From the IMG/VR virus record IMGVR_UViG_2671180724_000008: 64,000 bases of DNA; one strand, 5' to 3'. Of the stretch, positions 10,349 through 62,637 are shown piece after piece. Position numbers and translations under genes: made by a program. This DNA comes from a virus (Duplodnaviria > Heunggongvirae > Uroviricota > Caudoviricetes). Each line of letters opens with the position of its first letter. Positions within the stretch are counted from its first letter, which is position 1. The notes beneath the pieces were generated by a model. It had not been told where the DNA came from and ran no database searches. It saw only the letters and a program-made list of their open reading frames with translations.

Positions 10349-11908
10349 CTAATCTCGTTTCAGAACTCCAAAATCGAATGCTCCATCAATAGGCAATACA
10401 CCTTCTGCAAAGCCAGGTGTGGTGTCGATGATGTGTTTTCGCTCATAAGAGTGAGACAACAGGTATTTGTTGCTAATGTCAATGAAATCAGTGATAAAAC
10501 ACACGTTTGCCTGATTTTTTTTGGCTCGTAAGCCACGACCGACACGCTGCCTCATTTCAACTTCTGCTTTCCCACCACCAGCAAGAATGACCGCACCAAC
10601 GCTTGGCACATCAACACCGACATCCAGAATAGTCGAGCCTATTAAAACATCTATTTCTCCAGACGCTAAACTGTTCAGCTTTGCTTGCCTTGTCGCCTGG
10701 TTAGATTCCCCATAGATGAAGTCAACTCTAAGGCCGGACTCTTTCATCATTTCCATCAGGATTTGCCCGTGGCGTTTAAGACGAACCAGAGTCATACAAT
10801 TGAGAGAATGTTGCTTATAGAGCAATGCTTCGCGAACAATGGCCTCGTTACGTCCCAAATTATACACGATCCCCAACTGATAAGCCTTTTGGTAGGCGGT
10901 GCTCATACCAACTCTAAAATTGAGGTGTTTGTTGGCAAGTTCGGCCTTGATTCTGGCCTCGTCTGGCTTGTAGGCAACTTTATGATAAAGGAAGTACGGC
11001 TTTGCCAGAATGCCTCGATCAATCAGGTACTTTTCTGTGACTTTAATTTCAATTCGCCCGGCCACCGCCATCAGGCGCATGTTGGCTTCCGTCGAATCCT
11101 TCATGAACGGCGTGGCTGTAAGCGCCAGACGATAGTCTGCGTTCACACATAATCTGGCGATGTCATAGAAATTTGAGCCTGAAGACTCATGCGCCTCTTC
11201 CAGAATAAGAAGAGAGACACTTGAAAGGAAGCGTTTCACCAACTCCCGACGTTTGAGGTGGTAGCTTTTCTTATCTGGTGTTGCATCGCGTGGTGGTTCT
11301 TCGAGGAAACTTGCAAGAGTTTGAACTGTAGCGACGTTGATATGTCGTGATACCTGGAACTCACCCGAGCCAATGACTCCAACCTTTTGGTCTTTTAACC
11401 ACGGTTCGCCATTTTCGGCGCGGTAGTCGATGGATCTCTGGAAGTTTTCGGCCATTTGAAACATCAGAACAGAGCGGGTTGTTAAAAATAATGTCATTCG
11501 ACCGATACGTGCAGCTGCTTTGCAGGCAACGTTAGATTTCCCGCCACCAGTAGCGATCTGCGCAATCATCATTCCCTCTCGAACCAGTGTTTCCACAGTC
11601 TGATCCTGATACGCATAATCAGGATTGTATGGGAATGGGTTAACCGCCGGATTTGGTTTACCAAGCGCCGGGGCTTTGTCTTTGCGGATATGAACACATT
11701 TGATGCCCGCCTTGTTCAAGTTCGCCGCTACAGGCTTGGCAAAGCCAGCAGGGAACGAGTTTTTACTCCAGTTGAACATCGTGCTTGTGCCCTTCCAGTC
11801 GCCAGTCTCGACTTCGTAGCTCAACATTTGCTGCACCAGTTGCTTTACCTTGTCATCTGCGCCAGAAATAAGCGCATTTACTGCGTTAGATACAATCCGA
11901 ACAGTCAT
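10349..11908 (-). CDS. Superfamily-2 DEAD/DEAH-type DNA helicase
   Basis: Walker A ATGGGKS, DEAH-like LILEEAHE, LTATP motif III, C-terminal helicase domain with arginine-finger motif QRVGRGLR. Confidence 0.8.
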   Translation of the reverse strand: MTVRIVSNAVNALISGADDKVKQLVQQMLSYEVETGDWKGTSTMFNWSKNSFPAGFAKPVAANLNKAGIKCVHIRKDKAPALGKPNPAVNPFPYNPDYAYQDQTVETLVREGMMIAQIATGGGKSNVACKAAARIGRMTLFLTTRSVLMFQMAENFQRSIDYRAENGEPWLKDQKVGVIGSGEFQVSRHINVATVQTLASFLEEPPRDATPDKKSYHLKRRELVKRFLSSVSLLILEEAHESSGSNFYDIARLCVNADYRLALTATPFMKDSTEANMRLMAVAGRIEIKVTEKYLIDRGILAKPYFLYHKVAYKPDEARIKAELANKHLNFRVGMSTAYQKAYQLGIVYNLGRNEAIVREALLYKQHSLNCMTLVRLKRHGQILMEMMKESGLRVDFIYGESNQATRQAKLNSLASGEIDVLIGSTILDVGVDVPSVGAVILAGGGKAEVEMRQRVGRGLRAKKNQANVCFITDFIDISNKYLLSHSYERKHIIDTTPGFAEGVLPIDGAFDFGVLKRD

Positions 11909-11954
11909 AAACCTCTTTCCTTAGTGCCTTTTGTATGTTATTTGGCTATTATAA

Positions 11955-11972
11955 TAAGTAAGTGATTACTTA
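11955..11972. promoter_or_regulatory. TAAGTA-N6-TACTTA palindrome in divergent promoter region
   Basis: taagtaagtgattactta between the minus-strand helicase start and the plus-strand ParB-like gene. Confidence 0.5.
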
Positions 11973-11990
11973 GTGGATTGTAGCAATAAA

Positions 11991-12671
11991 ATGGATGTAA
12001 AAATCACGATTTTGCAGGTTGATGTTGCCAACCTTCGCCCGAATACCTGGAACACCAATTCGGTTGGTGCGCAGAATTTTGAAAAACTGAAAGGTTCTAT
12101 CGAAAAATTGGGCTTTTTTAAGCCAATTTTGGCTCGTGAACTTGAAGATGGATTTTTTGAAATCCTCGGCGGCGAACATCGCTGGCGTGCTGCTATTGAG
12201 CAAGGAATTTCAACGGTTCCGGTGCTTTCTGTGGGCAAAATTAGCGATGTCGTAGCTAAACAGATGTCACTGGTGGACAACGAGCGATACGGTGAAGACG
12301 ACCAAATCGCATTGCAACGCTTCATTGAAGAAATTCAGTCAGAACTTGACTATCAACTGTCTGAAATCGCCCCGTATGACGACGAAATCTCGATGGTTTT
12401 AGCAAAAGAGGCGGCAATCGACCTTGAAGCACTGGAGGCGTTGTCTCGTGGTAGTGATGAGCCTGTCGATACCGACAAACGAGAGAAAACCGAACGTGTG
12501 GGTGCGGAACATCAGACCATGCGCTTCAAAGTAACTTTCGATGCGTCAGATCGTGTTGCAGAAACCATAAAAAACATCATCAAAGAGCAGGCTATTAACA
12601 CCGGTAATGAAATGGAGAACGCTGGTGAGGCTCTGGTGTGGCTGGTCGACTACTACAAGGAGCGTATGTAA
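11991..12671 (+). CDS. ParB-like nuclease domain protein 1
   Basis: ParB N-terminal domain signature ILGGEHRWRAA; acidic C-terminus; alternative GTG start at 11973. Confidence 0.7.
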   Translation: MDVKITILQVDVANLRPNTWNTNSVGAQNFEKLKGSIEKLGFFKPILARELEDGFFEILGGEHRWRAAIEQGISTVPVLSVGKISDVVAKQMSLVDNERYGEDDQIALQRFIEEIQSELDYQLSEIAPYDDEISMVLAKEAAIDLEALEALSRGSDEPVDTDKREKTERVGAEHQTMRFKVTFDASDRVAETIKNIIKEQAINTGNEMENAGEALVWLVDYYKERM

Positions 12672-13339
12672 TGACCAAAAAGTTTGAAATCGTATATCGC
12701 GACCCGGCAGATCTTATTCCCTATGAGATGAATGCCAAAAAGCATGATGAACAGCAGATCCGAGATCTAGCCGCAGCCATTAAAAAGCGCGGATTTGACC
12801 AGCCAATTACGGTCGATAAGAACGACGTAATTATTACTGGCCACGGCCGCCGTGAGGCTGCAATTTTTGCTGGACTTGAGCGCGTACCGGTTATTGTTCG
12901 CGATGATCTCAGTGATGACGAGGTTCGTGCGAAGCGCCTTGAAGATAACCGACTTGCCAGCATTGATTACGATGCAATTAAGCTACAGAAAGAGCTTGAG
13001 TCGCTTGTTCTGGACGATATCGAGGTTTTCGGCTTTGAAGAGCGTGAGTTGAATGTTCTCGTTGGCAGTATGACAGAAGAAATGGACACCGACTCGCTAG
13101 TTATCGATCTTGGCGAAGAAACTAAACGACAGAAGGATGAACACACCGAGATCAGTCGTGAAGTTGCAGCGGAAGAAGTACGTGTTGTCGACGTATTGGG
13201 CTTTAAAACGCTCCCTGCTGGCTCTGCCATTGTTGTTGGTGATTTGCTTGCCCACATGGAAGAAATGACGGGAGAAAGCGGGGTAGACGCATTTGTGGCA
13301 TATGCGGAGAAGATCTCTTCCGGGGAGATGGCTGCATGA
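12671..13339 (+). CDS. ParB-like nuclease domain protein 2
   Basis: ITGHGRREAA motif; aaggag RBS; ATG overlaps upstream stop (taATG). Confidence 0.7.
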   Translation: MTKKFEIVYRDPADLIPYEMNAKKHDEQQIRDLAAAIKKRGFDQPITVDKNDVIITGHGRREAAIFAGLERVPVIVRDDLSDDEVRAKRLEDNRLASIDYDAIKLQKELESLVLDDIEVFGFEERELNVLVGSMTEEMDTDSLVIDLGEETKRQKDEHTEISREVAAEEVRVVDVLGFKTLPAGSAIVVGDLLAHMEEMTGESGVDAFVAYAEKISSGEMAA

Positions 13340-14001
13340 GCAAATACATCATCAACGTATCGTTTCAGACACGCGTAAATAAAACCACGCGCACGTTGGA
13401 AATCGCTGAGTCGTTCGGGCTTGGCCTGGACGAAAAAGAGTGGACGCTTTACGACAATCTGGAGCTGGAAGTGAAGCAGGGCGATGTGGTGTACATCACC
13501 GGCCAATCCGGTTCCGGCAAATCCGTTGTGCTGCGCGAGTTGCAACGACAGATGAAGGATGAAGGGCTGTCTGTAGCCTCCATCGATGATTTTACCTTCG
13601 ATAATGAGGTTAACGTCATCGATCAGTTGGGCAAAACGACCAGTGATGCGCTTGGGTTGTTATCTATGGCTGGTCTGAACGATGCATATCTGTTTGTTCG
13701 CAAGCCTTCTGAAATGTCAGACGGCCAGAAATATCGTCTCAAGATTGCCAAACTGATTGAGTCAGGCGCTAAAGTGTGGGCTGCTGACGAGTTCGGCGCT
13801 GTTCTCGACCGTGTAACCGCTCAGGTTGTGGCGTCTAACCTCCAGCGTGCCGCTCGAAAGGTTGGTGCGACGGTAATGGTGGCGACGACTCACGAAGACC
13901 TGAAGAACGCGCTGCGCCCGGATATGCAGATCACCAAGCACTACAAAGAACGCGTGAAGGTGGAATATCACAATGGTAGTCACGATGAGGTCCATTCATG
14001 A
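13336..14001 (+). CDS. Small ABC-type/P-loop ATPase
   Basis: Walker A GQSGSGKS, signature-like SDGQKYRLKIA, Walker B VWAADEFG; ATGA overlap with upstream gene. Confidence 0.65.
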   Translation: MSKYIINVSFQTRVNKTTRTLEIAESFGLGLDEKEWTLYDNLELEVKQGDVVYITGQSGSGKSVVLRELQRQMKDEGLSVASIDDFTFDNEVNVIDQLGKTTSDALGLLSMAGLNDAYLFVRKPSEMSDGQKYRLKIAKLIESGAKVWAADEFGAVLDRVTAQVVASNLQRAARKVGATVMVATTHEDLKNALRPDMQITKHYKERVKVEYHNGSHDEVHS

Positions 14002-14888
14002 CGGACATCATCATTAAACGCTACCGCCCTGAAGAGTTTCCGCGTCATCTGGACTTTCTGGAGCGAATGACTGTTACAAAGGGAACTGTAGAGGACTGGC
14101 ACGCTCTTAAGTCGCTTCACTACAAAACAGACGGCAAACCTTTCGCGCCAACTTACTATCGCTGCGAACTTGATGACCGTCTGGTGGGCGTCGTGGTTAT
14201 GGCTTACCCGAAACTACTGTTGGCACCTCGCCACCGCATGTTTCCTAAGTTGAAACCAACCACTAATACCACCGTGGCTAACCAGTACTGGGGTCGGTAC
14301 GTGAATAACAACTTTGCGGTGATCAGTCGCTCAGTTGTGGATACTCAGTATCGTGGCGTAGGCGTCTCTTATCGAATGATTAACCTGGTTAGCAGGATGC
14401 ATGACCGGCCAATCATTGAGATCCAGTCCTCGATGAGCAAATACAATCCCTTCGCCATGAAAGCAGGGTTTAAGTTCATCCGCCCTGAGCGACCGAAGAG
14501 CTATGAAAGTGCACTGCGTGTATTCCAGCGCCATTTCCGTTCCGACCCGGGTGATAACGAGGCGATCGTCAAAGAGTTGTTCGCAATGAGCGAGTCTCGT
14601 CGTCGCCGTGCACTGCGTGATCTGGTGGCGGACTACCACAAGAACAGTTCCCTGGCAAAAGCTGGGCGGAATCGTGGCACGACGATTCAGGACATTGCCG
14701 ACAGTCTGGTGGACGAGGCCAGCATTGTGAAGTTGCTCAAGGACATTCACAACCTGAGCTTTACGTCTCCGTTGTATGGGGTGTATCGAAACCCTGACTT
14801 TGGTCGTCGACTGCCTGACACGCTGCCACTGCTGGCATTCGACAAACAACCTTTGGATAAACCGTTAGAAATTGCTTTACCGGCATAA
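13998..14888 (+). CDS. GNAT-like (acetyltransferase-fold) protein with basic C-terminal extension
   Basis: YRGVGVSYRMINLV resembles the GNAT acetyl-CoA-binding motif; ATGA overlap with upstream ATPase. Confidence 0.45.
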   Translation: MTDIIIKRYRPEEFPRHLDFLERMTVTKGTVEDWHALKSLHYKTDGKPFAPTYYRCELDDRLVGVVVMAYPKLLLAPRHRMFPKLKPTTNTTVANQYWGRYVNNNFAVISRSVVDTQYRGVGVSYRMINLVSRMHDRPIIEIQSSMSKYNPFAMKAGFKFIRPERPKSYESALRVFQRHFRSDPGDNEAIVKELFAMSESRRRRALRDLVADYHKNSSLAKAGRNRGTTIQDIADSLVDEASIVKLLKDIHNLSFTSPLYGVYRNPDFGRRLPDTLPLLAFDKQPLDKPLEIALPA

Positions 14889-14897
14889 GGATTTGCC

Positions 14898-15164
14898 ATG
14901 ACGTTAACCGATAAACAAAAGGACATCATCAAAACGCTCAATCTCGGTTATGAGCGAGGTCATCTACTTGATCTGGACGAATTGCTTGAAGTTTTGCCGT
15001 ACAAGACAACCAAGCAAAGTATCCAGTTCTCAATTCGCGCTCTGATAAAAAAGGGGCTTGTGGAGAAAGGGCATACGCGCCAACGCAGTGACAATCGCTA
15101 TCACCGCCGAACTCTTGGGTTAACCACTTTAGGTCGAGCCAAAGCGAAGTTACTGGTGATGTAA
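14898..15164 (+). CDS. Small winged-helix DNA-binding protein
   Basis: 88 aa; ALIKKGLVEK-type wHTH segment; basic C-terminus. Confidence 0.5.
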   Translation: MTLTDKQKDIIKTLNLGYERGHLLDLDELLEVLPYKTTKQSIQFSIRALIKKGLVEKGHTRQRSDNRYHRRTLGLTTLGRAKAKLLVM

Positions 15165-15188
15165 TCGGTCTGGGAGCTTATTTAAAGA

Positions 15189-15243
15189 CCTGCTTCTGTA
15201 TATATAAATAATAAGTAACTTATTAAATATATACGGAAGCAGG
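15189..15243. repeat. 55-bp composite palindrome, copy 1 (17-bp GC-anchored arms cctgcttcYgtatatat around an AT-rich core containing aataagtaacttatt)
   Basis: Read directly; second copy at 47394-47448 in inverted orientation judged by flank match gtcttt(t)aaa. Confidence 0.85.
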
Positions 15244-15279
15244 CTTAATAAGACATGCCCAGACCTAATTAAACAACCC

Positions 15280-15322
15280 AGAAAACAAGTTGGTTAGAAA
15301 ATGCAGTAAACAAGTTGTTTTA
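15280..15322 (+). promoter_or_regulatory. Two operator motifs (agaaaacaagttggtta; gtaaacaagttgtttta) upstream of the terminase operon
   Basis: Members of the GAAAACAA..TTGTTT family. Confidence 0.5.
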
Positions 15323-15360
15323 GAGCGCATGGACGCGCTCTGTGTGTTTTAGAGGGATCT

Positions 15361-15993
15361 ATGACGGTCGAAAAAGACGAGGTAAAAACTCGCCTGACAC
15401 CAGCGGAGTGGGCCGAAGCTGAAGCCAAATGGACGTCAGGCGAATATACACTCTCAAAGCTGGAGGAAGAGTACGGCATTCGTCGTGAAACACTCTCCAG
15501 ACATTTCAAAAAGCGAGGATTAGAGAAAGGCGCGGACTCTGTTGGGAAGATGGTTCGTGAGTCTCTTAAATCTGACGCAGAGCTTCGCGCTAAAGCCCGT
15601 GCGGAAAAGATAGAAGAACGTCGTACACGTTATGACGGCTGGGCGTATGCGTTGGGGCAGATGGTGATGGTCGAAGTCACTACGGCCAAACGTGAGGGTA
15701 AGCCTTTAGGGGCGATTGAGGATTCTCTCAAGAGCTTACAGAGAGCCAGTAATACCCTTGCAAAATGCTTTGAAGTTTCGTCCAAAGCATTGGGCATGGA
15801 TCATGCGGAAAATGACGAGGAAGAAATTCCGAACCTGGTATTTGGTGAGCTTACGCCTTCCCAGGTGGCGAAATTACGTCAGGAAGACGACGAGCCTGAA
15901 ATCATCGATGACGAATTGCTTGAGACGTTGGAAGAAGAAGCTCTAAGCGAATTTGATGCGACAGATGATGGAAGTGAAGGGGAGGACGAATAA
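15361..15993 (+). CDS. Terminase small subunit (putative)
   Basis: Position directly upstream of large terminase; basic N-terminal half, highly acidic C-terminus. Confidence 0.6.
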   Translation: MTVEKDEVKTRLTPAEWAEAEAKWTSGEYTLSKLEEEYGIRRETLSRHFKKRGLEKGADSVGKMVRESLKSDAELRAKARAEKIEERRTRYDGWAYALGQMVMVEVTTAKREGKPLGAIEDSLKSLQRASNTLAKCFEVSSKALGMDHAENDEEEIPNLVFGELTPSQVAKLRQEDDEPEIIDDELLETLEEEALSEFDATDDGSEGEDE

Positions 15994-17249
15994 TGGCAAT
16001 CCCGTCCTCGCTCAGTCTTGTGCAACTGCATTCTGGACAGATGAAAGTCTTCCAGTCTCCGCATCGATTTAAAGTTGTTTGTGCTGGTCGACGCTGGGGA
16101 AAATCCCGGTTGTCGATCTCCACTATTATTCGTGCGGCGGCAAAGGAAAAAAAGCAAAGGGTCTGGTATGTCGCTCCTACTTACCAGATGGCTCGCCAGA
16201 TTTTGTGGGACGATCTACAGGAAGTTCTGCCTCGTAAGTGGGTTAGGAAAAAGAACGACACCACGATGACAATCGTGTTGAAGAACGGTTCGGAGATCGC
16301 CCTCAAAGGTGCTGATAAGCCTGACACTCTGCGCGGCGTAGCGTTGCATTTTGTAGTGCTTGATGAATTTCAGGATATGAAGGCTGACACCTGGTACAAG
16401 GTGTTACGACCTACTCTTTCATCGACACGCGGCGGTGCACTTATCATTGGTACGCCAAAAGGTTTCTCGGAATTTCACAAACTGTGGACTATAGGCCAGA
16501 ACGTAGAGCTGCAAAGAAAGGGACAGTGGAAGAGCTGGCAGTTTGTAACTGCCGATTCTCCGTTTGTGCCTACGGCGGAAATTGAAGCTGCTAAGAACGA
16601 TATGGACCCGAAATCGTTCGCTCAGGAGTACCTGGCGAGCTTTGAGAACATGTCCGGGCGCGTTTACTACCCGTTCGATCGTAACGTGCATGTAAAACCG
16701 CTTCAGTTCAACCCTCGGTTGCCTATATGGGTAGGGCAGGACTTCAACATTGACCCGATGTCTTCAGTAATTTTGCAACCTCAGCCAAATGGTGAGCTAT
16801 GGGCAATTGATGAATTGGTGCTCTTTTCCTCTAACACGGCAGAGGTTTGTGATGAGCTTGAGAGACGCTTCTGGCGCTGGAAATCACAGATAACGGTATT
16901 TCCAGATCCGGCAGGTGCTTATCGCCAACATGCTCGCGGGGAGTCTGACGTCGACATATTCAAAGAGAAGGGATTCTTACGTGTCGATTATTCGAAAAAG
17001 CACCCGCCAATTGCGGATCGTGTTAATGCTGTTAACCGAATGCTGATGACCGCATCTGGAGATATCCGGTTGTATATCGATCCGAAGTGCAAGCATTTGA
17101 TTGATTCACTGGAAAAAGTCATCTACAAGCCTGGAACACGAGATATGGATAAGACAGGTGGCATTGAGCATAGTGCAGACGCATTGGGCTATCCAGTACA
17201 TCGTAGGTATCCAGTCAAAAACCGTGTTATTCTTGGTGGTTCTCGATAG
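15993..17249 (+). CDS. Terminase large subunit
   Basis: Walker A CAGRRWGKS, Walker B VVLDEF, C-terminal nuclease-type acidic residues; ATGG overlap with TerS stop. Confidence 0.85.
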   Translation: MAIPSSLSLVQLHSGQMKVFQSPHRFKVVCAGRRWGKSRLSISTIIRAAAKEKKQRVWYVAPTYQMARQILWDDLQEVLPRKWVRKKNDTTMTIVLKNGSEIALKGADKPDTLRGVALHFVVLDEFQDMKADTWYKVLRPTLSSTRGGALIIGTPKGFSEFHKLWTIGQNVELQRKGQWKSWQFVTADSPFVPTAEIEAAKNDMDPKSFAQEYLASFENMSGRVYYPFDRNVHVKPLQFNPRLPIWVGQDFNIDPMSSVILQPQPNGELWAIDELVLFSSNTAEVCDELERRFWRWKSQITVFPDPAGAYRQHARGESDVDIFKEKGFLRVDYSKKHPPIADRVNAVNRMLMTASGDIRLYIDPKCKHLIDSLEKVIYKPGTRDMDKTGGIEHSADALGYPVHRRYPVKNRVILGGSR

Positions 17250-45434: not shown

Positions 45435-46103
45435 ATGACCAAGATCTTTGTGGTTGGCGGCACAAAGGGCGGGCCTGGCAAATCCACTGTTGCCCAGCAA
45501 ATTGCCGTTTGCCTGAAAGTCAAAAAGAAGAAGAAGGTTTATATCACTGATATAGATATTCAGCGCACGACAACAAGCTGGTGTGAAGACCGTCGACAGA
45601 ACGAAGACCTTGAGCTGATTCCTTTTGCCTACGTTCAGGATGACATCATTAAGCACCTAAAATCGCTTCAGGGTAGAGCTGAGTTTGTAGTGGTAGATGC
45701 TGGTGGCTTTGACTCCGAAATTCAGCGACAAGCGATGCTGATGGCCGACGTTATCATTATCCCGCTGCGTCCTAAGCGTCGTGATTTGAAATCTCTGCGT
45801 GACATCGATCCTATTATCGACAATGTTCGTAATGTAAACGATAAAGTGAAGGTCCGCGCGGTCATGAACCAGTGCCCGGCTTTGCCATCACAAGTGTCTC
45901 GCATTCTGGCGGCTAAAGAGATTGTCGAGACGTTTGGCATCGAGTCTGCGCCAGTCAATCTATATAACCGCAACGTCTACGATGATGCGGAAGAGTCTGG
46001 TCGTTCTATCTTCGAAATGACCGGTAGCGAGCGCGACAAAAAGGCTGAAGCCGAGTTTGAAGAATTTGTAGATTATCTGTTGAGTCTGGAGGAAGAAGAA
46101 TAA
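45435..46103 (+). CDS. ParA/MinD-family partition ATPase
   Basis: Deviant Walker A GGTKGGPGKST; small ParA size typical of type Ib partition systems. Confidence 0.8.
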   Translation: MTKIFVVGGTKGGPGKSTVAQQIAVCLKVKKKKKVYITDIDIQRTTTSWCEDRRQNEDLELIPFAYVQDDIIKHLKSLQGRAEFVVVDAGGFDSEIQRQAMLMADVIIIPLRPKRRDLKSLRDIDPIIDNVRNVNDKVKVRAVMNQCPALPSQVSRILAAKEIVETFGIESAPVNLYNRNVYDDAEESGRSIFEMTGSERDKKAEAEFEEFVDYLLSLEEEE

Positions 46104-46462
46104 TGTCCATGAAAATGGGTGACCTAGCAAAGCGCAAAGAGCCTGATGCACCGGCTAAGAACACAACTCCTTTGCGCCAACCAGTCAGACCACAGGGACG
46201 CCCGACTCGTGGCAAAGAGAAAATTAAGAGCCGCACGATGTCACTGGAGGACGAATACTTCGAACTGCTGGAGATGATGAAGTTCATCCCTCGTTTCGAG
46301 AAATTCACCCGTTCAGACGTGATTCGCGCAGCCATTTTCCATCTGGCAGAGAAGTCACCGCAGGAAATCGAGGACATCGTGAAACTTAACGAGGCGATCA
46401 CAGCTGCCGATGTCACGATGCGTACCGATGAAATCAAACGAGAGTTGATGAAAAAAGGTTAA
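46103..46462 (+). CDS. Ribbon-helix-helix centromere-binding partner (ParG-like)
   Basis: Basic disordered N-terminus, C-terminal RHH-like segment; ATGT overlap with parA-like stop. Confidence 0.55.
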   Translation: MSMKMGDLAKRKEPDAPAKNTTPLRQPVRPQGRPTRGKEKIKSRTMSLEDEYFELLEMMKFIPRFEKFTRSDVIRAAIFHLAEKSPQEIEDIVKLNEAITAADVTMRTDEIKRELMKKG

Positions 46463-48348: not shown

Positions 48349-49689
48349 ATGACCGAACTTTGCCATACAGGACGCGGGCTGTCCGAAGAGTTTGATGAAG
48401 ATTTCCAGAACAGACTGACGGCATATTTTTGTCGTGATCACGAGTTTCTTACTCGTGCGGGAGATCTGGTTGTGCCTAGCCAATTTGCCAATGCGGCCAA
48501 TGCCATATTGGTTAATATGGTTTCGGGCTATTACCGTATGTACAAGAGCGCGCCCTCTTCATCTGCAATTCTGGATATGCTTAAGCGTGCGAAACGCGAT
48601 AAGACTATCCGTGAGGAACTATTCGCCGATGTTGTTGCTGCGTTTAAGCGCATCCTTGCAGAAAAATTGTCCGATACCTCGTACATGGTTGACCAGGTAT
48701 CAACCTTCGCAAAAAGCGTAGCGTTTGATGATGCTCTGATTAAGGCTGCTGAACTGAAAGAGAAGGGCGACTTTCAGGGGGCGATGGCAATCATGGCCAA
48801 GGTTCAGCAGATTGGATCGAATGAAGCGACCGGAATCTATGACTACTACACCTCCGCAAGTGAGCGATTGAAAGCGCGTGAATATGAGGCTTCAGAGGAG
48901 TATGTACCAAACAGTATTACAACTGGACTCCCTCTTCTCGATAGGTTGCTGTACCAAAAAGGCTGGGCAAAGCGCGAAATGGTGCTCTTCATGGGGTTCG
49001 CTAAATCCGGTAAATCGACCGCAATGGGTGAGTTTTCCATAAACGCAACGCTTGCCGGCTACAATGTTCTGTATCTCTCGCTGGAGGTTCACACCAACAT
49101 TTTGTCCGACCGCTTTGATGCAAGATTGTCGGAGACGGAAATGTCCAAGCTGGTGGAACGGCGCGATGAAGTTCATCGTAAGTTGGCAGAGTTGGGAGCC
49201 ACGAAGGGGATTGGTAGTTTGTGGGTTGTTGAGCGTCCGTCAGGAAGTATGTCACCGGCCGATCTGGACCGTATGCTTAACAGTATGAAAGCCAATGGCA
49301 TGGTGCCTGACATGGTTGTTGTCGACTACGCAGATTTGATGCGTGCCAGTTATGACCTTCGTGATGATCGCGCCAATATTCGTAGTATCTACACCGATTT
49401 ACGTGCTCTTTATGACAAACATAACGTTGCTGGGATCACGGCATCGCAGACAAACCGTGAAGGTGGCGCGTCAGAAGTTGCCACAATGATGCACGCTGCC
49501 GACAACATCGAAAAAGTACGTATTGCTGACCTGGTAATAACGATCAACAAAACCGAAGAAGAAGAAGCGAAAGGAGAGGCTCGTCTCTACTTTGCTGGTT
49601 CGCGTAACCAGCAGGGAGGGATCAGCATTCGCGTTAAACAAAACCTCGAACAAATGCGCTTCATTGAGCGAATCTTAGACGTTACCTAA
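48349..49689 (+). CDS. DnaB-like replicative helicase (RecA-fold ATPase)
   Basis: Walker A GFAKSGKST, Walker B-like VVVDYADL, size 446 aa. Confidence 0.75.
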   Translation: MTELCHTGRGLSEEFDEDFQNRLTAYFCRDHEFLTRAGDLVVPSQFANAANAILVNMVSGYYRMYKSAPSSSAILDMLKRAKRDKTIREELFADVVAAFKRILAEKLSDTSYMVDQVSTFAKSVAFDDALIKAAELKEKGDFQGAMAIMAKVQQIGSNEATGIYDYYTSASERLKAREYEASEEYVPNSITTGLPLLDRLLYQKGWAKREMVLFMGFAKSGKSTAMGEFSINATLAGYNVLYLSLEVHTNILSDRFDARLSETEMSKLVERRDEVHRKLAELGATKGIGSLWVVERPSGSMSPADLDRMLNSMKANGMVPDMVVVDYADLMRASYDLRDDRANIRSIYTDLRALYDKHNVAGITASQTNREGGASEVATMMHAADNIEKVRIADLVITINKTEEEEAKGEARLYFAGSRNQQGGISIRVKQNLEQMRFIERILDVT

Positions 49690-49770
49690 AAAATAAGCGT
49701 GGAGAACACCTCCACGCTTGATTCATTGGTGAAACAACTTTTCTTTTGCCAAACCACAAAAGAAAAACAC

Positions 49771-50952
49771 ATGAGCCTTTATGTTATATCAACATTTAGG
49801 TTGGTCACAATATTGCCTGTTAAAAGTGGAATTATCGTGAGCGAGCTGAAAGAGCTAATTACCGAATTAGATTTTGAACAATGGTTGGACACTGAAGGTA
49901 TCGTTTATCGACGTGGAGGTGTGAGTGCTCGCGGTCGTGAAGTGAATATCAAGGAGTGTCCGGTATGCGGCAGCTCCAACTGGAAGGTATATTTCAATCT
50001 GACCAGTGGCGTCGGCAAATGCTTCGCTGGTGATCATCCCGAAGAGATTCAGTTCAATAAGCTGGTCTTCCTCAAGCACTACAGCGGTAAATCACGACGA
50101 CAGTTCGAGGAATATGTGCAGAACGCTCTTCTTTCCCAGGGGTGGGCACCAAAGAAAGAAGAGATAGTGCTTGCAAGCACAGTCGAGTTAGAGGGACCAC
50201 TTGCACTCCCTCGTCATTACGAGCTTCCTATAGATGGCCGTCTTCCAGACTATCTGGTTGAACGAAACATATCACCTGAAATGGCAAAGTATTTTGACCT
50301 ACGATACTGCGTCGAAGGCAAGCACGCTTATGTAGATCCGTATACAGATCAGGTAAAAGGACAGATATTCGATATGCGAGTACTGATACCGGTTTACGAT
50401 CTGGATGGGGTAATGAAGACATTTCAGGGACGAGACATTACCGGTACAGCAGACCGCCGCTACCTCTTTCCTATGCAGCTTCCAGCTTCAGGTAAGTTTC
50501 TCTACAACGGCCATAATGCGGTCGGCAAACAGACTGTAGTTGTCTGTGAGGGGGCGTTCGATGTTATGGGGGTTAAACGAGCTATTTTTGATGAAGAAAC
50601 ATTACGTGATTACGTGGAACCGATAGGAACGTTCGGGATGCATCTATCTGGTAACACCACTCAGGATGCAGAAGATCAGTTAGGCGCGTTCCTGACGCTC
50701 AAGGCGCGTGGGTTACGTAATGTGATCATGATGTGGGATAGTGAAAAGCAAGCTATACGCAACACTATGGCCGCAGCCAGGCGACTGACCAGTATCGGTC
50801 TTAATGTCAAAGTTGCGTGTTTGGGTGAGGAAGGACTCGACCCAGGCGGTGCAACGCCAGAACAAATTATCAAAGCCTATTATCGGGCAAAACCGTATAC
50901 CAAACAGTTGGAGTTGCAAAGCAAGGTTTTGGGCATTAAGGCTCTATCGTAA
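49771..50952 (+). CDS. DNA primase (zinc-finger + TOPRIM)
   Basis: CPVCGSSNWKV...C zinc-binding motif and TOPRIM-like VVVCEGAFD; start set at ATG 49771 because the 49699 start lies inside a hairpin. Confidence 0.75.
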   Translation: MSLYVISTFRLVTILPVKSGIIVSELKELITELDFEQWLDTEGIVYRRGGVSARGREVNIKECPVCGSSNWKVYFNLTSGVGKCFAGDHPEEIQFNKLVFLKHYSGKSRRQFEEYVQNALLSQGWAPKKEEIVLASTVELEGPLALPRHYELPIDGRLPDYLVERNISPEMAKYFDLRYCVEGKHAYVDPYTDQVKGQIFDMRVLIPVYDLDGVMKTFQGRDITGTADRRYLFPMQLPASGKFLYNGHNAVGKQTVVVCEGAFDVMGVKRAIFDEETLRDYVEPIGTFGMHLSGNTTQDAEDQLGAFLTLKARGLRNVIMMWDSEKQAIRNTMAAARRLTSIGLNVKVACLGEEGLDPGGATPEQIIKAYYRAKPYTKQLELQSKVLGIKALS

Positions 50953-51027
50953 CAAACGCCGTTAAAATAAGTAGATGATTACTTATCTTTCTGTAAGAAT
51001 ACTTTCATCTGTTAGCTAGGAGTTGGT

Positions 51028-51810
51028 ATGAAAGACGAAATTCAGAAATTAGCCTGCGACATCATTGATAAAACTGGTTTAGAAATCAGCGAGAGCAATC
51101 GACTAGACATCATTGAAAAAGCGGTAAAAACAGCAATGGATCATATCGCCACTCGTTTGGTTGAGATCCCGCTACCAGGGCTACCTTATCTGAAGGTTGA
51201 GTTACACGTATGGGGTGAACCTTCTTGTGCACGGCGTTCTGCATTAGTTGTTTTTATTAGCAAAGAAAACCCGCTCAGTCTTAAAGTGCAGGTTGGTGCA
51301 TGGATGGATGGAAAAGTGATCTACACAAATACCGTTTTTTGTGCGCCAAACGACAGTATTATTGAAGAGGCTATTCAGGAATCACTTCTAACTATGCATA
51401 GCTTAGTTTTGCTGGAAGACAAGCAAAACTACGAAGAGTACTTACGGTCGATAAAAGGTGAGAGAACATTGTCACTTAAAGCCGATTTTGTTACCCCGAC
51501 AAACCTGTTGGAAGTCTTGCTTAATAAAGGGGCTAATGATGCCGTAAATGTAATCAGAGAGAGTGAGTATGCGTCTCTTTGCGACATGTGCAAAAGCCAG
51601 TTGGATCTGGTGCATATCGTTATTGATGCTGGGAAGGCATGTGATGGCGTAATGGCGGAATTTGCTGGGAAGATGGTCAGGATTGCTAACGAATTACCGA
51701 TGATAGAGCAAGAGGCTAAATCATACGCCACCAATCATGTCACAGAGCTTCTTGTCCCCTATCGCTTAGAAAGCAATCAGCGCAAGATGGTTAGCTGGGG
51801 AAGTTGGTAA
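51028..51810 (+). CDS. Hypothetical protein
   Basis: 260-aa ORF. Confidence 0.5.
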   Translation: MKDEIQKLACDIIDKTGLEISESNRLDIIEKAVKTAMDHIATRLVEIPLPGLPYLKVELHVWGEPSCARRSALVVFISKENPLSLKVQVGAWMDGKVIYTNTVFCAPNDSIIEEAIQESLLTMHSLVLLEDKQNYEEYLRSIKGERTLSLKADFVTPTNLLEVLLNKGANDAVNVIRESEYASLCDMCKSQLDLVHIVIDAGKACDGVMAEFAGKMVRIANELPMIEQEAKSYATNHVTELLVPYRLESNQRKMVSWGSW

Positions 51811-51865
51811 TCTCTCCGCGCGTCGTTTTTTACGCAAATAACGATAGGTAAGTACAAGATTATTT

Positions 51866-52348
51866 ATGGCGGTAGTTGTGAAAGCTGATTTGTCAAAAAT
51901 CCCCTCTATTTCAGGAAATAATGGTTATTCACTTCGTTGTGAGGAAGTAAAGATAAACGGTGAGTCGGCATATTGCAGCTACTCCGTTTGCCAGCACACC
52001 ATTCTTGCCTTCAAAGAAAACCGTCTTCCTCGAACTTCATTCCAGTCGTGCGCAACCACTATCAAAGCAGGCAAATGCAAGGCGTTAAAAATGATGGTTG
52101 AAGAGATTCGTAAAGGAGAATCTCTGTATTTCGAAGATATGACCGCGCTCATTAAGGAGGTTGAAGAACGGAATAAACAAGCCAGAACTATAAAACGAAA
52201 ACGTGACAGTGTAACGATTAATAGCATGGTTAAGAAGAGCACCACATCACAAACAGCGATCACTGACGTGTATGCGGCGTTGCTTGAAGAAACAACAAAA
52301 GAAACACATGAGCAAATCGATCAACATATGGAGGCAAAACAACAATGA
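51866..52348 (+). CDS. Hypothetical protein (Cys-containing, basic)
   Basis: 160-aa ORF. Confidence 0.5.
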   Translation: MAVVVKADLSKIPSISGNNGYSLRCEEVKINGESAYCSYSVCQHTILAFKENRLPRTSFQSCATTIKAGKCKALKMMVEEIRKGESLYFEDMTALIKEVEERNKQARTIKRKRDSVTINSMVKKSTTSQTAITDVYAALLEETTKETHEQIDQHMEAKQQ

Positions 52349-53667
52349 AAAAGTTGATCGCACTTAAGCATAAGCTGGACGAAATGAAAGCTATGGGAAC
52401 CAATGCAAAAAAAGAGGCATTGGCCAACATGGATGACTTCGAGCAAAGCATGGTTTCATTGATGCTCAACCCTTTCATCCGTTTTGGGGTAAAGAAATAC
52501 AAAGTGGCAGAGCCGCTTAGTGAGTCCGTCCCAAGTGACGAAAAAGCCATTGATATACTGAATAAGCTGGCCTCTCGCGAGCTGACGGGGAACGCAGCAA
52601 TAGCTGCTGTTGAGTCTATCGTGGCGTCAATGTGCGCCGATGGGCAGGACGTGTTCCGTCGTTTCCTCTTAAAAGATCCGAAAGCTGGCGTTGGGATTAG
52701 CCTATGCAACAAGGTTTTTGAAAATCCCATTCCGAAATTCGAGGTGCAGCTGGCGTCACCGTATAAAGAAAAAGGCGACAAATACCCCTTCAAGCCAAAT
52801 CCTAAAGCAAAATGGCCGATGATTGGCAGCCTTAAGCTCGATGGTTTGCGAGTAATTTGCGAGGTTATTGTTGACGAGGAAGAGGTGAACTTCCTTTCTC
52901 GTACTGGTAATCCAATCACGTCTCTCGATCACCTAAAGCCAGCCATGCTCGAATTAGGCAAACTTTCAGGCCACAAACACATCTTCTTCGATGGTGAAGG
53001 AACAGCCGGTTCATTTAACAAGTCCGTATCTGCATTGCGCAAAAAGAACGTGCAGGCAATTGGCGCTATTTATCATGTTTTCGACTTCTTCCTACCGGAA
53101 TGGCGGGCACAGGCTAAATCCAAAGAGTATGCAAAGACAGGTATGAAGCTGAAAGAGCGCCTGGCTATTCTCGTGGCGTTGTTCAAAAACGATCGCAGTG
53201 AAGACTACGCGCAAGACATTCACCTACATCCGTTCTACATCATCCATAGCCACGAAGACTTCATCGAACGCTTCATGAAACGCCTGGACGATAACGAAGA
53301 AGGGGAGATGGGCAAAGATCCGAACTCTGTTTACGAGTTTAAACGTACCCGCAGCTGGTGGAAGTTAAAAGACGAAGATTCAGAAGATGGTGAAATTATC
53401 GACTTTGAGCCGGGCGACCCGGACTCTGGTTTTGCCAACACACTTGGAAAAATTGTTATTCGTCTTGAAAACGGCGTCATCGTTCGTGCGAGCGGCATTA
53501 AGCATAAATATCTGGACGAGATCTGGAACAACAAAGAGAAGTACCGTGGTCGTATTGTCGAGGTTCATTGTCACGAGAAAACACCGGACGGCAGCTTACG
53601 CCACCCACGACTGAAATGGCCGCGTTGCTTACGCGATACAGAAGATCGAATCGGAGATAAAGAATGA
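52345..53667 (+). CDS. ATP-dependent DNA ligase
   Basis: Adenylation motif GSLKLDGLR (KxDG), size 440 aa. Confidence 0.8.
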   Translation: MKKLIALKHKLDEMKAMGTNAKKEALANMDDFEQSMVSLMLNPFIRFGVKKYKVAEPLSESVPSDEKAIDILNKLASRELTGNAAIAAVESIVASMCADGQDVFRRFLLKDPKAGVGISLCNKVFENPIPKFEVQLASPYKEKGDKYPFKPNPKAKWPMIGSLKLDGLRVICEVIVDEEEVNFLSRTGNPITSLDHLKPAMLELGKLSGHKHIFFDGEGTAGSFNKSVSALRKKNVQAIGAIYHVFDFFLPEWRAQAKSKEYAKTGMKLKERLAILVALFKNDRSEDYAQDIHLHPFYIIHSHEDFIERFMKRLDDNEEGEMGKDPNSVYEFKRTRSWWKLKDEDSEDGEIIDFEPGDPDSGFANTLGKIVIRLENGVIVRASGIKHKYLDEIWNNKEKYRGRIVEVHCHEKTPDGSLRHPRLKWPRCLRDTEDRIGDKE

Positions 53668-58386: not shown

Positions 58387-59490
58387 ATGAAAAATAGCTT
58401 TGACAGAGCACGCGCTGCGGAGAACACCTCAAAAGAGGCGATTGAGTATCTCGAAAGAGCATCTCAAATGCAGGCCGTTATGATCTCGCAGGTTAGCAAT
58501 GACATGAGATTCTCGGACGCATTCATGTTATTCACTCGCTTATCTCTGCTTATAACCAGACGTCGGCCAGAGATCGCTGTTCATTGTATTTTGATACATG
58601 TTTTGCCGCACATTGCTGATGTAAAAGTAAGTGACATTAATAGGTTCATGGTGAACCAACTGGTAAACCCACTAATACTGGATGGCAAAATTGTTATGGG
58701 CCGCCGCGTTTTCTCTCTGATGAAGCAGTTCCTTAGCTGGTGCGCCTTCCAGGGGATGATAGACGTGTCACCGTTAAACGATATGTCACTAAACAAAGTT
58801 GCCGGTGGCGCAAAGCCCACACCTCGCGAGCGGAAGCTGACCGACGCAGAGGTATGGGTGTTCTGGAATATATGGGACTACTTCAATGTGTGCGCTGGTA
58901 CAAAATGGGCGGCCAGGCTGTGTCTTGTATCAGCAAGACGACCTGACGAAGTACTGCGGGCTAAAAAAAGTGAGTTCAATCTTAAGCGTGGGGTTTGGAA
59001 TCAAGGCAAGAGAAACAAGTCAGCACGTGAGCATTCGCTGCCTTTAAGCACATTAATGCGCACATGCATTGAAGAGTTGTTCGAATACGGTAAAGACAGC
59101 CAGTGGCTCGTGCCTTCGAATAAAAAAATCGGGAAAGACCTTCCTATGTCTAAAGTGGCAATAGCCCAGGCATTACGTCGTATTCTGGAACGACCAGAAC
59201 TGATGGAGCTTGAGCCATTTACACCCCGAGATTTGCGCCGTACTGCGCGTAGTTACTTCCCAGCATTAGGCATAAGCCAGGAGGTATCACGCAAAATCAT
59301 GAACCACAGTCTTGAGGGGATAGATCGGGTCTACGACCGGCACGATTATATGGACGAGATGCGAGACGCCTTAGAAAGTTTCTCGACGTACATCGCATCA
59401 ATCGTAGAGCAACCGGATTTAGACGAAATTGACCACAAATTCAAGGGAGATCGTCTATCAACAGAGCTTATTCGTGTAAATTTTTCATAG
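58387..59490 (+). CDS. Tyrosine integrase (site-specific recombinase)
   Basis: C-terminal catalytic pattern: Arg in RRPDEV, HSLEGIDRVYDRHDY region with His/Arg and terminal Tyr; 367 aa. Confidence 0.85.
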   Translation: MKNSFDRARAAENTSKEAIEYLERASQMQAVMISQVSNDMRFSDAFMLFTRLSLLITRRRPEIAVHCILIHVLPHIADVKVSDINRFMVNQLVNPLILDGKIVMGRRVFSLMKQFLSWCAFQGMIDVSPLNDMSLNKVAGGAKPTPRERKLTDAEVWVFWNIWDYFNVCAGTKWAARLCLVSARRPDEVLRAKKSEFNLKRGVWNQGKRNKSAREHSLPLSTLMRTCIEELFEYGKDSQWLVPSNKKIGKDLPMSKVAIAQALRRILERPELMELEPFTPRDLRRTARSYFPALGISQEVSRKIMNHSLEGIDRVYDRHDYMDEMRDALESFSTYIASIVEQPDLDEIDHKFKGDRLSTELIRVNFS

Positions 59491-60433: not shown

Positions 60434-62542
60434 ATGTCTAAAAAACGTTCCATCAAAGAGGTTCAGGACTTCCGTGACAGTGTAAAACGAGTAGTCGCTC
60501 TCCTTTCAGGTAAAAACATCCCTGTTGCAGAACGAGGGGACGACGCTTATGTACGCTATAACGATGATGGAGAGCCAATTCTCGTAAACATCCCATCAAT
60601 CCCGGATAACGCAACACCGGCATTGATGAATGCTGTGCGCGGATTTCTCGATCATGAGGTTGCTCACATTTTGTTTACCGATATTCGTGTGTCCAACAAA
60701 ATGAGAGAAAAAGGACGCGTTCCTTCCTGGTCGCTATGGAATGCCTTAGAAGACGTGTTCATCGAGCGAAAAATGGGGCAGGTCTTTAACGGAACAAGAC
60801 GTAATCTGATGGCAACTCAGCGCCTTATAATCGAAAAAGTCTTTAAACCAAAGGCTTCAGAGGCTATTGCTTATTGTGGCAAAGATCAGCGCGCGCTTTT
60901 TCTAAACTTCTTTCTCTGTCCGGTTGTAAGAGCCTGGGATGGCCAAGCACCGTTCGTAGATTTCATGGATGAATACTGGCCTGTCATTGAGAAACCAATT
61001 TCATTATTAAAAGAACATGGTATCGATGTGGCCGTGCGTAACATGTCTTGCACCGAGGATTGTGTAAAGGTGGCTGCGACCATAGCTAAGATCCTCAAAG
61101 ACACTGAAAGTGAAAGCAAAGGTAAGGAGTCAGCTCCGGGAAAAACTTCCGATCCTTCAGACGCTGACCAGACGGATGCCTCTGGAGAAAACAATGAAGA
61201 CAACGAAGATCATGAGACACCCTCAGCGTTAGATAATCACAAATCTATCGAATCAGAATCACACAGTAAGCACAAACATGATAATAACGACAGTGATGAT
61301 TCAGATAATTCTGAATCATCAGAAACAATATTCGATGATACAGAAAATGATAAAGAGGTATCAGATTCTGATGCTTCTGATAACGCGGCGTCAGAATCAT
61401 TAACCGCTGGCCACGAAAAAAGAAAAACGACAGAAGACGGCTCTTCAGATATTCCAACTCCGTCAAAAATGAGTCTGGAAGAGGCTTTAGAGGAGCTGGA
61501 TAGCATAGAAGATGAAGTCGGAGGCATGACAGAAGATGCTCTATCCGAAACGATTAAAAGCGAGTTAACAGAAAGCTCGAAAAGCGAATACAGGCCATAC
61601 AATCGCTCATACGACTTCATCGGCTCGATTGATCAGGCAGAAGCCCATATCAAACGGCTTATTAAAACATTCTCCGATATTGATTTAGGAGGATATCCAA
61701 TCAGCCGCTATCGCATCGTTCCTGAAGGCAACCAGCTCTTCGACAAATATATTGAAAAGCATCTTTCGTCAGGTGTTTCGTCGACGCTGGCAAAAGACCT
61801 GGAGCGAGCAATAGCAAGCAGAAACAGAGTTCAGTTTATACCGGGCCAGCGTCGGGGGCGCATTCATGGTTCTAGTATCTACAGATTAGCAATGAATGAT
61901 GATCGCGTGTTTCGTAAAAAAGAAGAATCTAAAGCCGTTAACGCCTGTGTTCAACAAGTGATTGATTTATCAGGTTCAATGAGTGGCGAAACGATAAAAC
62001 TAGCTCTTGCAAGTGCATATACCATCGCCGATGCTCTTGATCGAATAAATGTTCCCAACATTATCACCGGCTTCACTACATTTGGCAGTCATCTGGCAGC
62101 GATAGAACTTAAGGCTATCAAGTATGAGTTCTCTCGCTTTGAATCTTTAATGCTACCTATCATCAAAAATTGGAATGAAAAAGCAAATTCTCGCGAAGTT
62201 CGCTCACGTATGGGGTGCGTAGGCTACACATTCCCACTTCTTAATAACGTGGATGGTGAAAGCATAGCCAGCCTTGCATCGTTATTTTCCGGTCGCATGG
62301 AGGACAGGAAGATCATGCTTGTTCTGAGCGATGGCGAGCCGCTGGCTGTTGGGAGAGGTTTTGACGCTCATTTGCGTTCGGTTGCGAAGCAAATTGAAAC
62401 GCAGACTGACATTGATTTGATGGCAATTGGCATCATGACTGACGCACCGGAGAGATTTTACGCAAATCATGCCCTGGTAACGAGCGTTGATAGTCTTGGT
62501 TCATCTGTAGTTACTGAACTATCTCGTATCATTTTGAAGTGA
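60434..62542 (+). CDS. von Willebrand factor A (vWA) domain protein with acidic Ser/Asp-rich linker (CobT-like)
   Basis: C-terminal MIDAS motif DLSGSMSGE; long acidic low-complexity linker around residues 230-330; 702 aa. Confidence 0.7.
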   Translation: MSKKRSIKEVQDFRDSVKRVVALLSGKNIPVAERGDDAYVRYNDDGEPILVNIPSIPDNATPALMNAVRGFLDHEVAHILFTDIRVSNKMREKGRVPSWSLWNALEDVFIERKMGQVFNGTRRNLMATQRLIIEKVFKPKASEAIAYCGKDQRALFLNFFLCPVVRAWDGQAPFVDFMDEYWPVIEKPISLLKEHGIDVAVRNMSCTEDCVKVAATIAKILKDTESESKGKESAPGKTSDPSDADQTDASGENNEDNEDHETPSALDNHKSIESESHSKHKHDNNDSDDSDNSESSETIFDDTENDKEVSDSDASDNAASESLTAGHEKRKTTEDGSSDIPTPSKMSLEEALEELDSIEDEVGGMTEDALSETIKSELTESSKSEYRPYNRSYDFIGSIDQAEAHIKRLIKTFSDIDLGGYPISRYRIVPEGNQLFDKYIEKHLSSGVSSTLAKDLERAIASRNRVQFIPGQRRGRIHGSSIYRLAMNDDRVFRKKEESKAVNACVQQVIDLSGSMSGETIKLALASAYTIADALDRINVPNIITGFTTFGSHLAAIELKAIKYEFSRFESLMLPIIKNWNEKANSREVRSRMGCVGYTFPLLNNVDGESIASLASLFSGRMEDRKIMLVLSDGEPLAVGRGFDAHLRSVAKQIETQTDIDLMAIGIMTDAPERFYANHALVTSVDSLGSSVVTELSRIILK

Positions 62543-62637
62543 TTAAAACAGCCTTAACGATAAGTAACTACTTATGATAGTTAATGATATATTTATATAA
62601 GAAGTTGAACGCTCATTAGAGAACAAAGGAAAAACGC

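Follow-up and report, generated by a model that had tools for sequence, protein, structure and literature searches.

A candidate split module of ParB-like proteins, an ABC ATPase and a GNAT protein upstream of the terminase genes of an SSU5-type phage-plasmid

What role could two ParB-like proteins, an ABC-type ATPase, a GNAT-like protein and a small winged-helix protein have together, encoded one after another upstream of the terminase genes of a tailed virus? This arrangement is present in IMG/VR virus record IMGVR_UViG_2671180724_000008 (Caudoviricetes), a stretch of 64,000 nucleotides that is referred to here as the window. The five genes are currently annotated only at a generic, domain level, as 'ParB', 'ABC transporter', 'hypothetical protein' and 'DNA-binding protein'. 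Although the individual genes have been annotated in hundreds of records, no account of the joint unit, or of a joint function of ParB, ABC and GNAT proteins, was found in the searchable literature. The evidence presented here identifies the first four genes, g1 to g4, as the split form of a widespread viral module made of a ParB/Srx protein, an ABC ATPase and a GNAT, with two ParB paralogues in this instance. The fifth, g5, is predicted to be a small, lineage-specific winged-helix DNA-binding partner or regulator. A preliminary description of the window, made from the sequence alone, had noted the cluster but overlooked that the ABC protein and the GNAT (g3 and g4) are the two halves of a protein family that is fused elsewhere, as well as the ParB fusions and the conservation beyond SSU5-like elements.

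The gene cluster and its fused counterparts

11991 to 12671, plus strand: g1, ParB/Srx N-domain protein of class 'a', 226 amino acids (aa); Pfam ParB_N, phrog_723
12671 to 13339, plus strand: g2, ParB/Srx N-domain protein of class 'b', 222 aa; Pfam ParB_N, phrog_930
13336 to 14001, plus strand: g3, stand-alone ABC nucleotide-binding domain, 221 aa; Pfam ABC_tran
13998 to 14888, plus strand: g4, GNAT-fold acyltransferase domain and helical C-domain, 296 aa
14898 to 15164, plus strand: g5, MarR-like winged-helix protein, 88 aa

All five genes had been described as joined by start/stop overlaps. This is the case for g1 to g4, with TAATG at 12671 (g1/g2) and ATGA at 13336 (g2/g3) and 13998 (g3/g4), but g4 and g5 do not overlap and are separated by a 9 nt gap. 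The GenBank annotations of Escherichia phages PhiR41_1 and Cyrano give identical gene calls for g1 to g5.

When 1.8 billion representative proteins were compared with a profile built from the g4 family, 912 matched. Beyond the close g4 family, most of these are proteins of ~450–500 aa in which the g4-like part is C-terminal and an ABC_tran domain (Pfam) occupies the N-terminus, the profile matching the C-terminal halves of ABC-containing proteins with E-values down to 1e-27. Concatenated g3 and g4 are colinear over their full length with 39 ABC-GNAT proteins, with conservation of the ABC motifs, HY[KR] and GNAT motif A. These alignments mark g3 and g4 as a predicted split ABC-GNAT enzyme that is fused elsewhere as one protein, which would explain their ATGA coupling. 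Homologues already carry the name 'ABC-type ATPase with (fused to a) predicted acetyltransferase domain' in JGI annotation and in the GenBank entry of Cyrano. The fused proteins with this type of annotation (COG2401/MK0520-type) share motifs A and B as well as the ABC motifs and HY[KR] with g3 and g4, and a viral late-gene context is common to both. They differ in that g3 and g4 are two translationally coupled genes, and in that a C-terminal extension (YG.Y.NPD ... P.LAFD.Q) is particular to the g4 branch.

The ABC domain of g3 scores 50.1 bits against Pfam ABC_tran (cut-off 25), it matches solved ABC nucleotide-binding domains in the PDB down to E 2e-13, and its motifs are complete: Walker A GQSGSGKS, signature SDGQ, Walker B AADEF (D-E) and H-loop TTHE. 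The P-loop ATPase with an ABC-like signature that had been proposed is present with all of its catalytic motifs. The domain is nearer to transporter-type and ABC-F-type nucleotide-binding domains than to those of Rad50/SMC. An ABC transporter was rejected as an identity for the cluster, since there are no permease or substrate-binding genes in the cluster or in the related loci from 13 lineages; the product name 'ABC transporter' is a domain-level carry-over.

The GNAT-fold domain of g4 comprises approximately residues 1–168 and is followed by the helical C-domain. It has the acyl-CoA pyrophosphate-binding loop (motif A, R/Q-x-x-G-x-G/A) and motif B of the GNAT fold. Invariant residues fall in both in a family alignment of 34 sequences extending to 42% identity, as R..G.G and N..A..AGF respectively, in agreement with the acetyl-CoA-binding motif noted previously. 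The profile searches proposed at that time have been run, and g1, g2 and g3 are above their Pfam cut-offs, while g4 is below that for GNAT, its best match being Acetyltransf_10 with 14.4 bits against a cut-off of 23.6. There is no NCBIfam match for g4, and a sequence search of the PDB with g4 returned nothing significant (best E 0.98). The similarity of g4 to the Mom family is at the level of the fold only, there being no sequence-family match in Pfam, PHROG or NCBIfam. The basic tail attributed to g4 is not found, as the last 40 residues have an isoelectric point (pI) of 5.9; it is the protein as a whole that is basic (pI 9.8), and basic residues form a patch at approximately residues 199–226.

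The ParB-like proteins appear to be part of the same machine as the ABC-GNAT enzyme, because ParB is fused to ABC-GNAT in several lineages. With the fused family as query, a scan that covered one genome for each species located 349 loci, and archaea account for all of the best 80 (Nitrososphaeria, Bathyarchaeia and Caldarchaeales). ParB_N-ABC-GNAT single chains, confirmed with Pfam, are present in four Bathyarchaeia loci (L127, L133, L142 and L160), and 5 of the top 150 representative clusters are triple fusions of this kind, with the motifs GE[HQ]R or GQQR. The motif class of g1, GEHR, is that of the ParB domain in the archaeal ABC-GNAT fusions. The GHGR class of g2 resembles the lone ParB beside ABC-GNAT in Pasteurella and Streptococcus phages.

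Other architectures occur in the ABC-GNAT family (P0164, P0208, P0179, P0154 and P0184/P0197/P0233 are unusual). One protein has an intein with LAGLIDADG within the ABC domain and others have an N-terminal family-B DNA polymerase, although these may be merged gene calls. In further variants there is a TFIIB repeat at the C-terminus, or a second P-loop NTPase of ~440 aa at the N-terminus.

Both g1 and g2 score above the gathering cut-off of Pfam ParB_N (50.0 and 35.2 bits; cut-off 26.3) and contain the GxxRxxA nucleotide-binding motif, as GGEHRWRAA at residue 60 of g1 and GHGRREAA at residue 57 of g2. Their best sequence matches in the PDB are Spo0J, ParB and Noc, over the N-terminal domain only. 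In addition, g2 is similar to phage ParB-methyltransferases in their N-domain (phrog_498, E 1.7e-31) and is matched by the PADLOC MTase_II profile (E 2.9e-17), and there is a weak match of the ParB/Srx fold to SbnI. The label 'ParB-fold nucleases' that had been given to g1 and g2 has no evidence behind it.

The presence of two ParB_N proteins on a plasmid-prophage, together with the PHROGs label 'ParB-like partition protein', might suggest a second plasmid-partition or maintenance system, either based on ParB or as an addiction pair in which g4 would be a GNAT toxin and g5 its winged-helix antitoxin. GNAT toxins that are paired with small DNA-binding antitoxins are a known kind. The N-terminal ParB fold, the GxxRxxA-type motif (GEHRWRAA in g1) and a DN motif are shared with the Spo0J/Noc/ParB CTPase clamps. 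Unlike these clamps, g1 and g2 are acidic (pI ~4.5, with 4.55 for g1 and ~4.2–4.4 for the C-terminal halves) and are not paired with a ParA; no helix-turn-helix (HTH) family was found in either with Pfam, no C-terminal dimerisation domain was detected, and the partition-ParB model TIGR00180 gives 43.2 and 43.1 bits, below its cut-off of 58.45. A ParA-type gene is present elsewhere in the window, 30 kb away and with its own partner, as the preliminary description had pointed out:

45435 to 46103: ParA/MipZ-type ATPase, 222 aa, overlapping a gene for a 119 aa partner, the pair spanning 45435 to 46462

The 119 aa partner has no Pfam match. This pair is likely to be the true partition locus, and a partition system was rejected as an identity for g1 to g5, which upholds the earlier suspicion that the cluster is something else. 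The related modules are also found in chromosomal prophages, Mu-like phages, other phages that are not described as plasmids, and archaeal proviruses. A GNAT toxin-antitoxin pair was likewise rejected: most relatives of g4 share one chain with an ABC ATPase, unlike GNAT toxins, and are located in virus structural modules, and PADLOC gives no match for g4. A partition or maintenance function is largely refuted by this distribution and must be seen as highly improbable.

The winged-helix nature of g5, as proposed, is supported by its alpha1-beta1-alpha2-alpha3-beta2-beta3 topology and by a structural match to the MarR/HxlR/PadR-like type. The gene trails g4 in all relatives of this lineage.

Distribution and genomic context

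The region from 11900 to 15400 (3.5 kb) is 100% identical to Escherichia coli plasmid CP057685.1 and is matched by 792 PLSDB plasmid records, and in 741 of these the match covers at least 80% of the query length. These plasmids are from Klebsiella, Escherichia, Enterobacter, Yersinia and Salmonella and are mostly non-mobilizable. The same region has 98–99% identity to Escherichia phages CMS-2020a, PhiR41_1 and Cyrano and 85% identity to Salmonella phage SSU5. Because of these plasmid and phage identities the window is classed as an SSU5-type phage-plasmid. A scan of IMG/VR with the g4 alignment found only near-identical SSU5-like loci.

Features on either side of the cluster in the window are as follows:

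10349 to 11908, minus strand: UvsW-like SF2 helicase gene, divergent from g1; Pfam ResIII/DEAD/Helicase_C and phrog_16
11909 to 11990: 82 bp divergent intergenic region, the presumed promoter region of g1 to g5
15361 to 15993, plus strand: gene similar to that of the small terminase subunit (TerS-like), 210 aa, with an HTH-like segment at the N-terminus and an acidic tail; phrog_867
15993 to 17249, plus strand: gene encoding the terminase large subunit (TerL), with a TAATG overlap with the TerS-like gene; Pfam Terminase_6N/Terminase_3 and PHROGs

The position of the cluster upstream of the terminase, as first described, is thus correct, the TerS-like and TerL genes being on the same strand and followed by a portal gene. 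A scan of the 82 bp spacer found no strong sigma-70 consensus, and promoter and terminator scans gave counts that are not above those of shuffled sequence.

Conservation of the cluster as a unit, which it had been suggested should be checked, is seen in four relatives. Two contain g4 relatives with 42–45% identity, a 3.3 Mb metagenomic contig (L002) and a sequence from Ectothiorhodospira (L003). In both, the order is divergent helicase, ParB, ParB, ABC, one to three small genes, g4, g5, a gap, TerS-like, TerL and portal. Pseudomonas phage nickie and Rhizobium phage RHph_N1_10 have the same full module order, and the divergent helicase is a syntenic neighbour in all four. More widely, phages of Proteobacteria, Actinobacteria, Firmicutes, Spirochaetes and Bacteroidetes that are unrelated to one another have a ParB gene followed by ABC or ABC-GNAT, and archaeal proviruses have the fused gene. 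The phage loci tabulated are:

Pasteurella Pmp13: ParB, fused ABC-GNAT, then TerS and TerL
Leptospira LE4: ParB, fused ABC-GNAT, three small genes, then TerL
Gordonia BiggityBass (L168, 1–2473): ParB and ABC-GNAT as genes 1 and 2, then a methyltransferase, then the terminase
Gordonia Jace (L175, 4438–6517): ParB, ABC-GNAT, aspartate decarboxylase, with TerS 3 kb further on
Streptococcus prophage 315.4 (L167): ParB, ABC, an 89 aa open reading frame (ORF), an ASCH gene, then TerL
Burkholderia phiE255 (Mu-like; L171, 4971–6703): ABC-GNAT and a PurN-like formyltransferase after the tail genes, with no ParB
Porphyromonas phage009a (L173, 4956–6559): ABC-GNAT and a PurN-like formyltransferase after the tail genes, with no ParB
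Nonlabens P12024S: ABC-GNAT between the primase and helicase genes

Family-specific hidden Markov models (HMMs) place all of the tabulated phage homologues in one ABC clade (E 1e-28 to 1e-85) and find the GNAT part in all except the phiE255 protein. The 89 aa ORF of prophage 315.4 (L167, 5283–5552) has a remnant resembling motif A, QGVGLG, and a weak HMM match (E 5e-5), which suggests that it is a decayed or mis-called GNAT half. The ABC-GNAT and PurN-like formyltransferase genes, which are paired in both phiE255 and phage009a although these phages are unrelated, have the look of a mobile cassette of two genes and hint at group-transfer chemistry.

In the archaeal loci the neighbours are tailed-virus genes, including TerL (Pfam), a Mu-type portal and an HK97-gp10-like protein. 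TerL is directly upstream of ABC-GNAT in 33 of the 80 archaeal genome loci and in 43 of the 80 loci of the IMG/VR archaeal virus set (L177–L256), with tail genes preceding it instead in half of the archaeal virus loci. ABC-GNAT is the last gene of the structural block in the IMG/VR loci, where contigs often end less than a few hundred bases after it; such ends could be genome termini or provirus boundaries called by the pipeline. Overall, the usual place of the module is next to the terminase or where the late operon ends, and sometimes it adjoins methyltransferase, formyltransferase or decarboxylase genes.

This placement raises the possibility of a packaging-initiation accessory, the main rival to the explanation preferred below. 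The module would then act on the packaging site by marking or remodelling it, or on the terminase by loading or regulating it, with any acetylation directed at a packaging protein. The module is directly upstream of TerS/TerL in the window and in nickie, RHph_N1_10, Pmp13, LE4, BiggityBass and 315.4, and the archaeal data extend the adjacency to TerL across two domains of life. The gene is often at contig or genome ends; in BiggityBass, which has no annotated TerS, the ParB and ABC-GNAT pair is at the genome end. The palindrome conserved between g5 and the TerS-like gene, described below, can be added to these points. However, a separate TerS-like gene overlaps TerL in the window and TerS genes are annotated in Pmp13 and Jace, for which reason g1 to g5 were also rejected as the TerS itself. 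A 196 bp non-coding stretch with hairpins separates the module from the terminase operon, the modules of phiE255 and Nonlabens P12024S are not beside the terminase, and half of the archaeal virus loci have the gene after tail genes rather than TerL. The strict conservation of the acyl-CoA motif also favours chemistry over a purely architectural role. A packaging function is on balance rather unlikely.

Several sequence features are located in the 196 bp stretch. An imperfect palindrome at 15167–15265 (centre ~15217) has 39 nt arms with 72% complementarity and encloses a near-perfect, AT-rich palindrome with 16 nt arms. The arms, CCTGCTTC and GAAGCAGG, are retained in relatives of 90% identity, and the GenBank records of SSU5 and Cyrano end at the equivalent of ~15225 of the window, near the centre of the palindrome. 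It may be a terminator, possibly bidirectional, a boundary, or a packaging-site or genome-end element. Two 25 nt direct repeats with the common core AAACAAGTTG follow at 15269–15318, and a GC-rich hairpin with a T-tract is present at 15321–15342, just 5' of the TerS-like start. The features at 15269–15342 may be a regulator-binding site or a terminator before the packaging operon.

A possible ATP-dependent acylation of phage DNA

The preferred explanation, which is quite possible but held tentatively, is that the module is a late ATP-dependent acyl-transfer machine that acts on phage DNA in a manner analogous to Mom of phage Mu. The enzymes look active, with invariant residues in the GNAT motifs and the catalytic motifs of g3 intact. 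In the proposed scheme, ATP-driven dimerisation of the ABC domains would engage phage DNA, with the ParB/Srx subunits as loaders or activators, and the GNAT domain would transfer an acyl group from acyl-CoA to a base or to a pre-modified base. The genome would be marked in this way before or during packaging and would be protected from restriction in the next host. Such a scheme would resemble Mom in fold and timing and TmcA/NAT10 in ATP-coupled GNAT chemistry. In TmcA/NAT10, ATP hydrolysis is coupled to a GNAT that acts on nucleic acid (RNA cytidine). The mom gene of phage Mu lies after the tail-fibre genes, like the ABC-GNAT gene of phiE255.

Acylation of DNA is preferred because of the fusion of g3 and g4 counterparts elsewhere and of ParB to ABC-GNAT in several lineages, and because the motifs are intact in a g4 that is basic, as would be expected of a nucleic-acid binder. 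It is also preferred since the neighbours in other viruses are group-transfer or tailoring enzymes (methyltransferase, formyltransferase and decarboxylase, and ASCH in 315.4), since the module is located apart from the terminase in both phiE255 and Nonlabens P12024S, and since it coexists with TerS in Pmp13 and Jace and with the TerS-like gene here. A further reason is that phage enzymes that modify DNA repeatedly have ParB-like domains as partners; among the thymine dioxygenases of phages, one class requires a ParB-like partner (bioRxiv 10.1101/2025.08.14.668559). Finally, GNATs acting on DNA have precedent, in Mom by fold and in PaMx11 gp48 by experiment, the latter acetylating 5-aminomethyl-dU in DNA (PMC8989533).

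Comparison with these systems shows both common and distinct features. The ParB-methyltransferases (phrog_498) and the ParB-dependent thymine dioxygenases likewise couple a ParB/Srx N-domain lacking an HTH to an enzyme, often near the terminase, but in the present case the enzyme would be an ABC ATPase with a GNAT, and there are two ParB paralogues. Mom (PDB 8bv8), a GNAT-fold DNA adenine methylcarbamoylase, has a late-gene position in common with the module; it differs in working without an ABC ATPase or ParB partner, and the Pfam, PHROG and NCBIfam searches returned no sequence-level family link to it. TmcA/NAT10 and PaMx11 gp48 have in common with the proposed scheme that a nucleic-acid base is the target of a GNAT, although the ATPase of the former is helicase-like rather than ABC, gp48 needs no ATPase, and the homology seen with either extends no further than the GNAT fold. 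The combination of ParB, ABC and GNAT is unlike the ParB-partnered modifiers, the GNAT DNA modifiers and TmcA/NAT10 in ATPase type and subunit make-up. A known defence or counter-defence family was rejected, PADLOC giving only generic P-loop and methyltransferase N-domain matches.

Several points weigh against DNA as the target. The strongest contextual signal is the adjacency to TerL and morphogenesis genes, which fits a packaging role equally well. The structural likeness of g4 to Mom is equalled by its likeness to dozens of GNATs, including protein N-acetyltransferases. Given their acidity and lack of an HTH, g1 and g2 may not bind DNA themselves, and the ParB GxxR motif varies between lineages, the arginine being absent in the Gordonia phages (GNHT, GNHTLKAA). 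To our knowledge, no modified base is known from SSU5-like phages.

The substrate could also be RNA, tRNA, protein or a small molecule. ATP-dependent acetylation of a target other than DNA (a protein, tRNA or aminoacyl-tRNA, or a small molecule) might serve host takeover, counter-defence or virion maturation. The likeness of g3 to transporter-type and ABC-F-type domains rather than to Rad50/SMC is consistent with this, as are the neighbours with a formyltransferase fold, a fold that includes the Fmt family, which formylates tRNA. The ParB/Srx fold is also found in kinases and NTPases, to which the weak SbnI match can be related. On the other hand, the fusion or adjacency of the ParB N-domain and the likeness of g2 to the ParB-methyltransferases point to DNA, and the module is consistently placed among DNA-handling and late genes, with occasional fused or adjacent calls of a family-B DNA polymerase. 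A target other than DNA is distinctly unlikely.

A bolder version of the DNA acylation proposal is that the module represents an undescribed, ancient ATP-dependent DNA-acylation system common to the tailed viruses of Bacteria and Archaea. Here, ABC dimerisation on DNA, gated by ParB/Srx, would deliver the GNAT active site to the base. Packaged genomes would carry a new acyl mark, with lineage-specific tailoring by the neighbouring formyltransferase, methyltransferase and decarboxylase enzymes. As a reading of gene content across these viruses, this is conceivable but doubtful.

Other genes of the window and significance of the module

Elsewhere in the window, an ORF at 40–1473 encodes the C-terminal two-thirds of a methionyl-tRNA synthetase (tRNA-synt_1g, Anticodon_3, tRNA_bind) and may start upstream of the window. 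A replication block at 48349–53667 contains genes for a DnaB-like helicase, a primase-like protein and an ATP-dependent DNA ligase, and a tyrosine recombinase gene is found at 58387–59490 (58.4 kb). At 60434–63873 there is a gene for a CobT-like VWA protein (702 aa) followed by one for a dynein-type AAA_5 ATPase (411 aa), which we take to be a CobS/CobT-like pair.

The SSU5-type phage-plasmids that carry g1 to g5 are common in clinical Enterobacteriaceae, as reflected in the PLSDB records. The five genes form one unit with fused counterparts in viruses from those of Bathyarchaeia to those of Gordonia, and the hypothesis of its function is testable in E. coli. Whichever function is correct, the labels 'ABC transporter' and 'partition protein' are misleading and need revision. 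A packaging function, if true, would make the module a terminase accessory of a new class. A function in DNA modification, if true, would bring to the anti-restriction repertoire of phages a new enzyme architecture, probably with a new base modification as well, and would explain a conserved late gene of many archaeal viruses.

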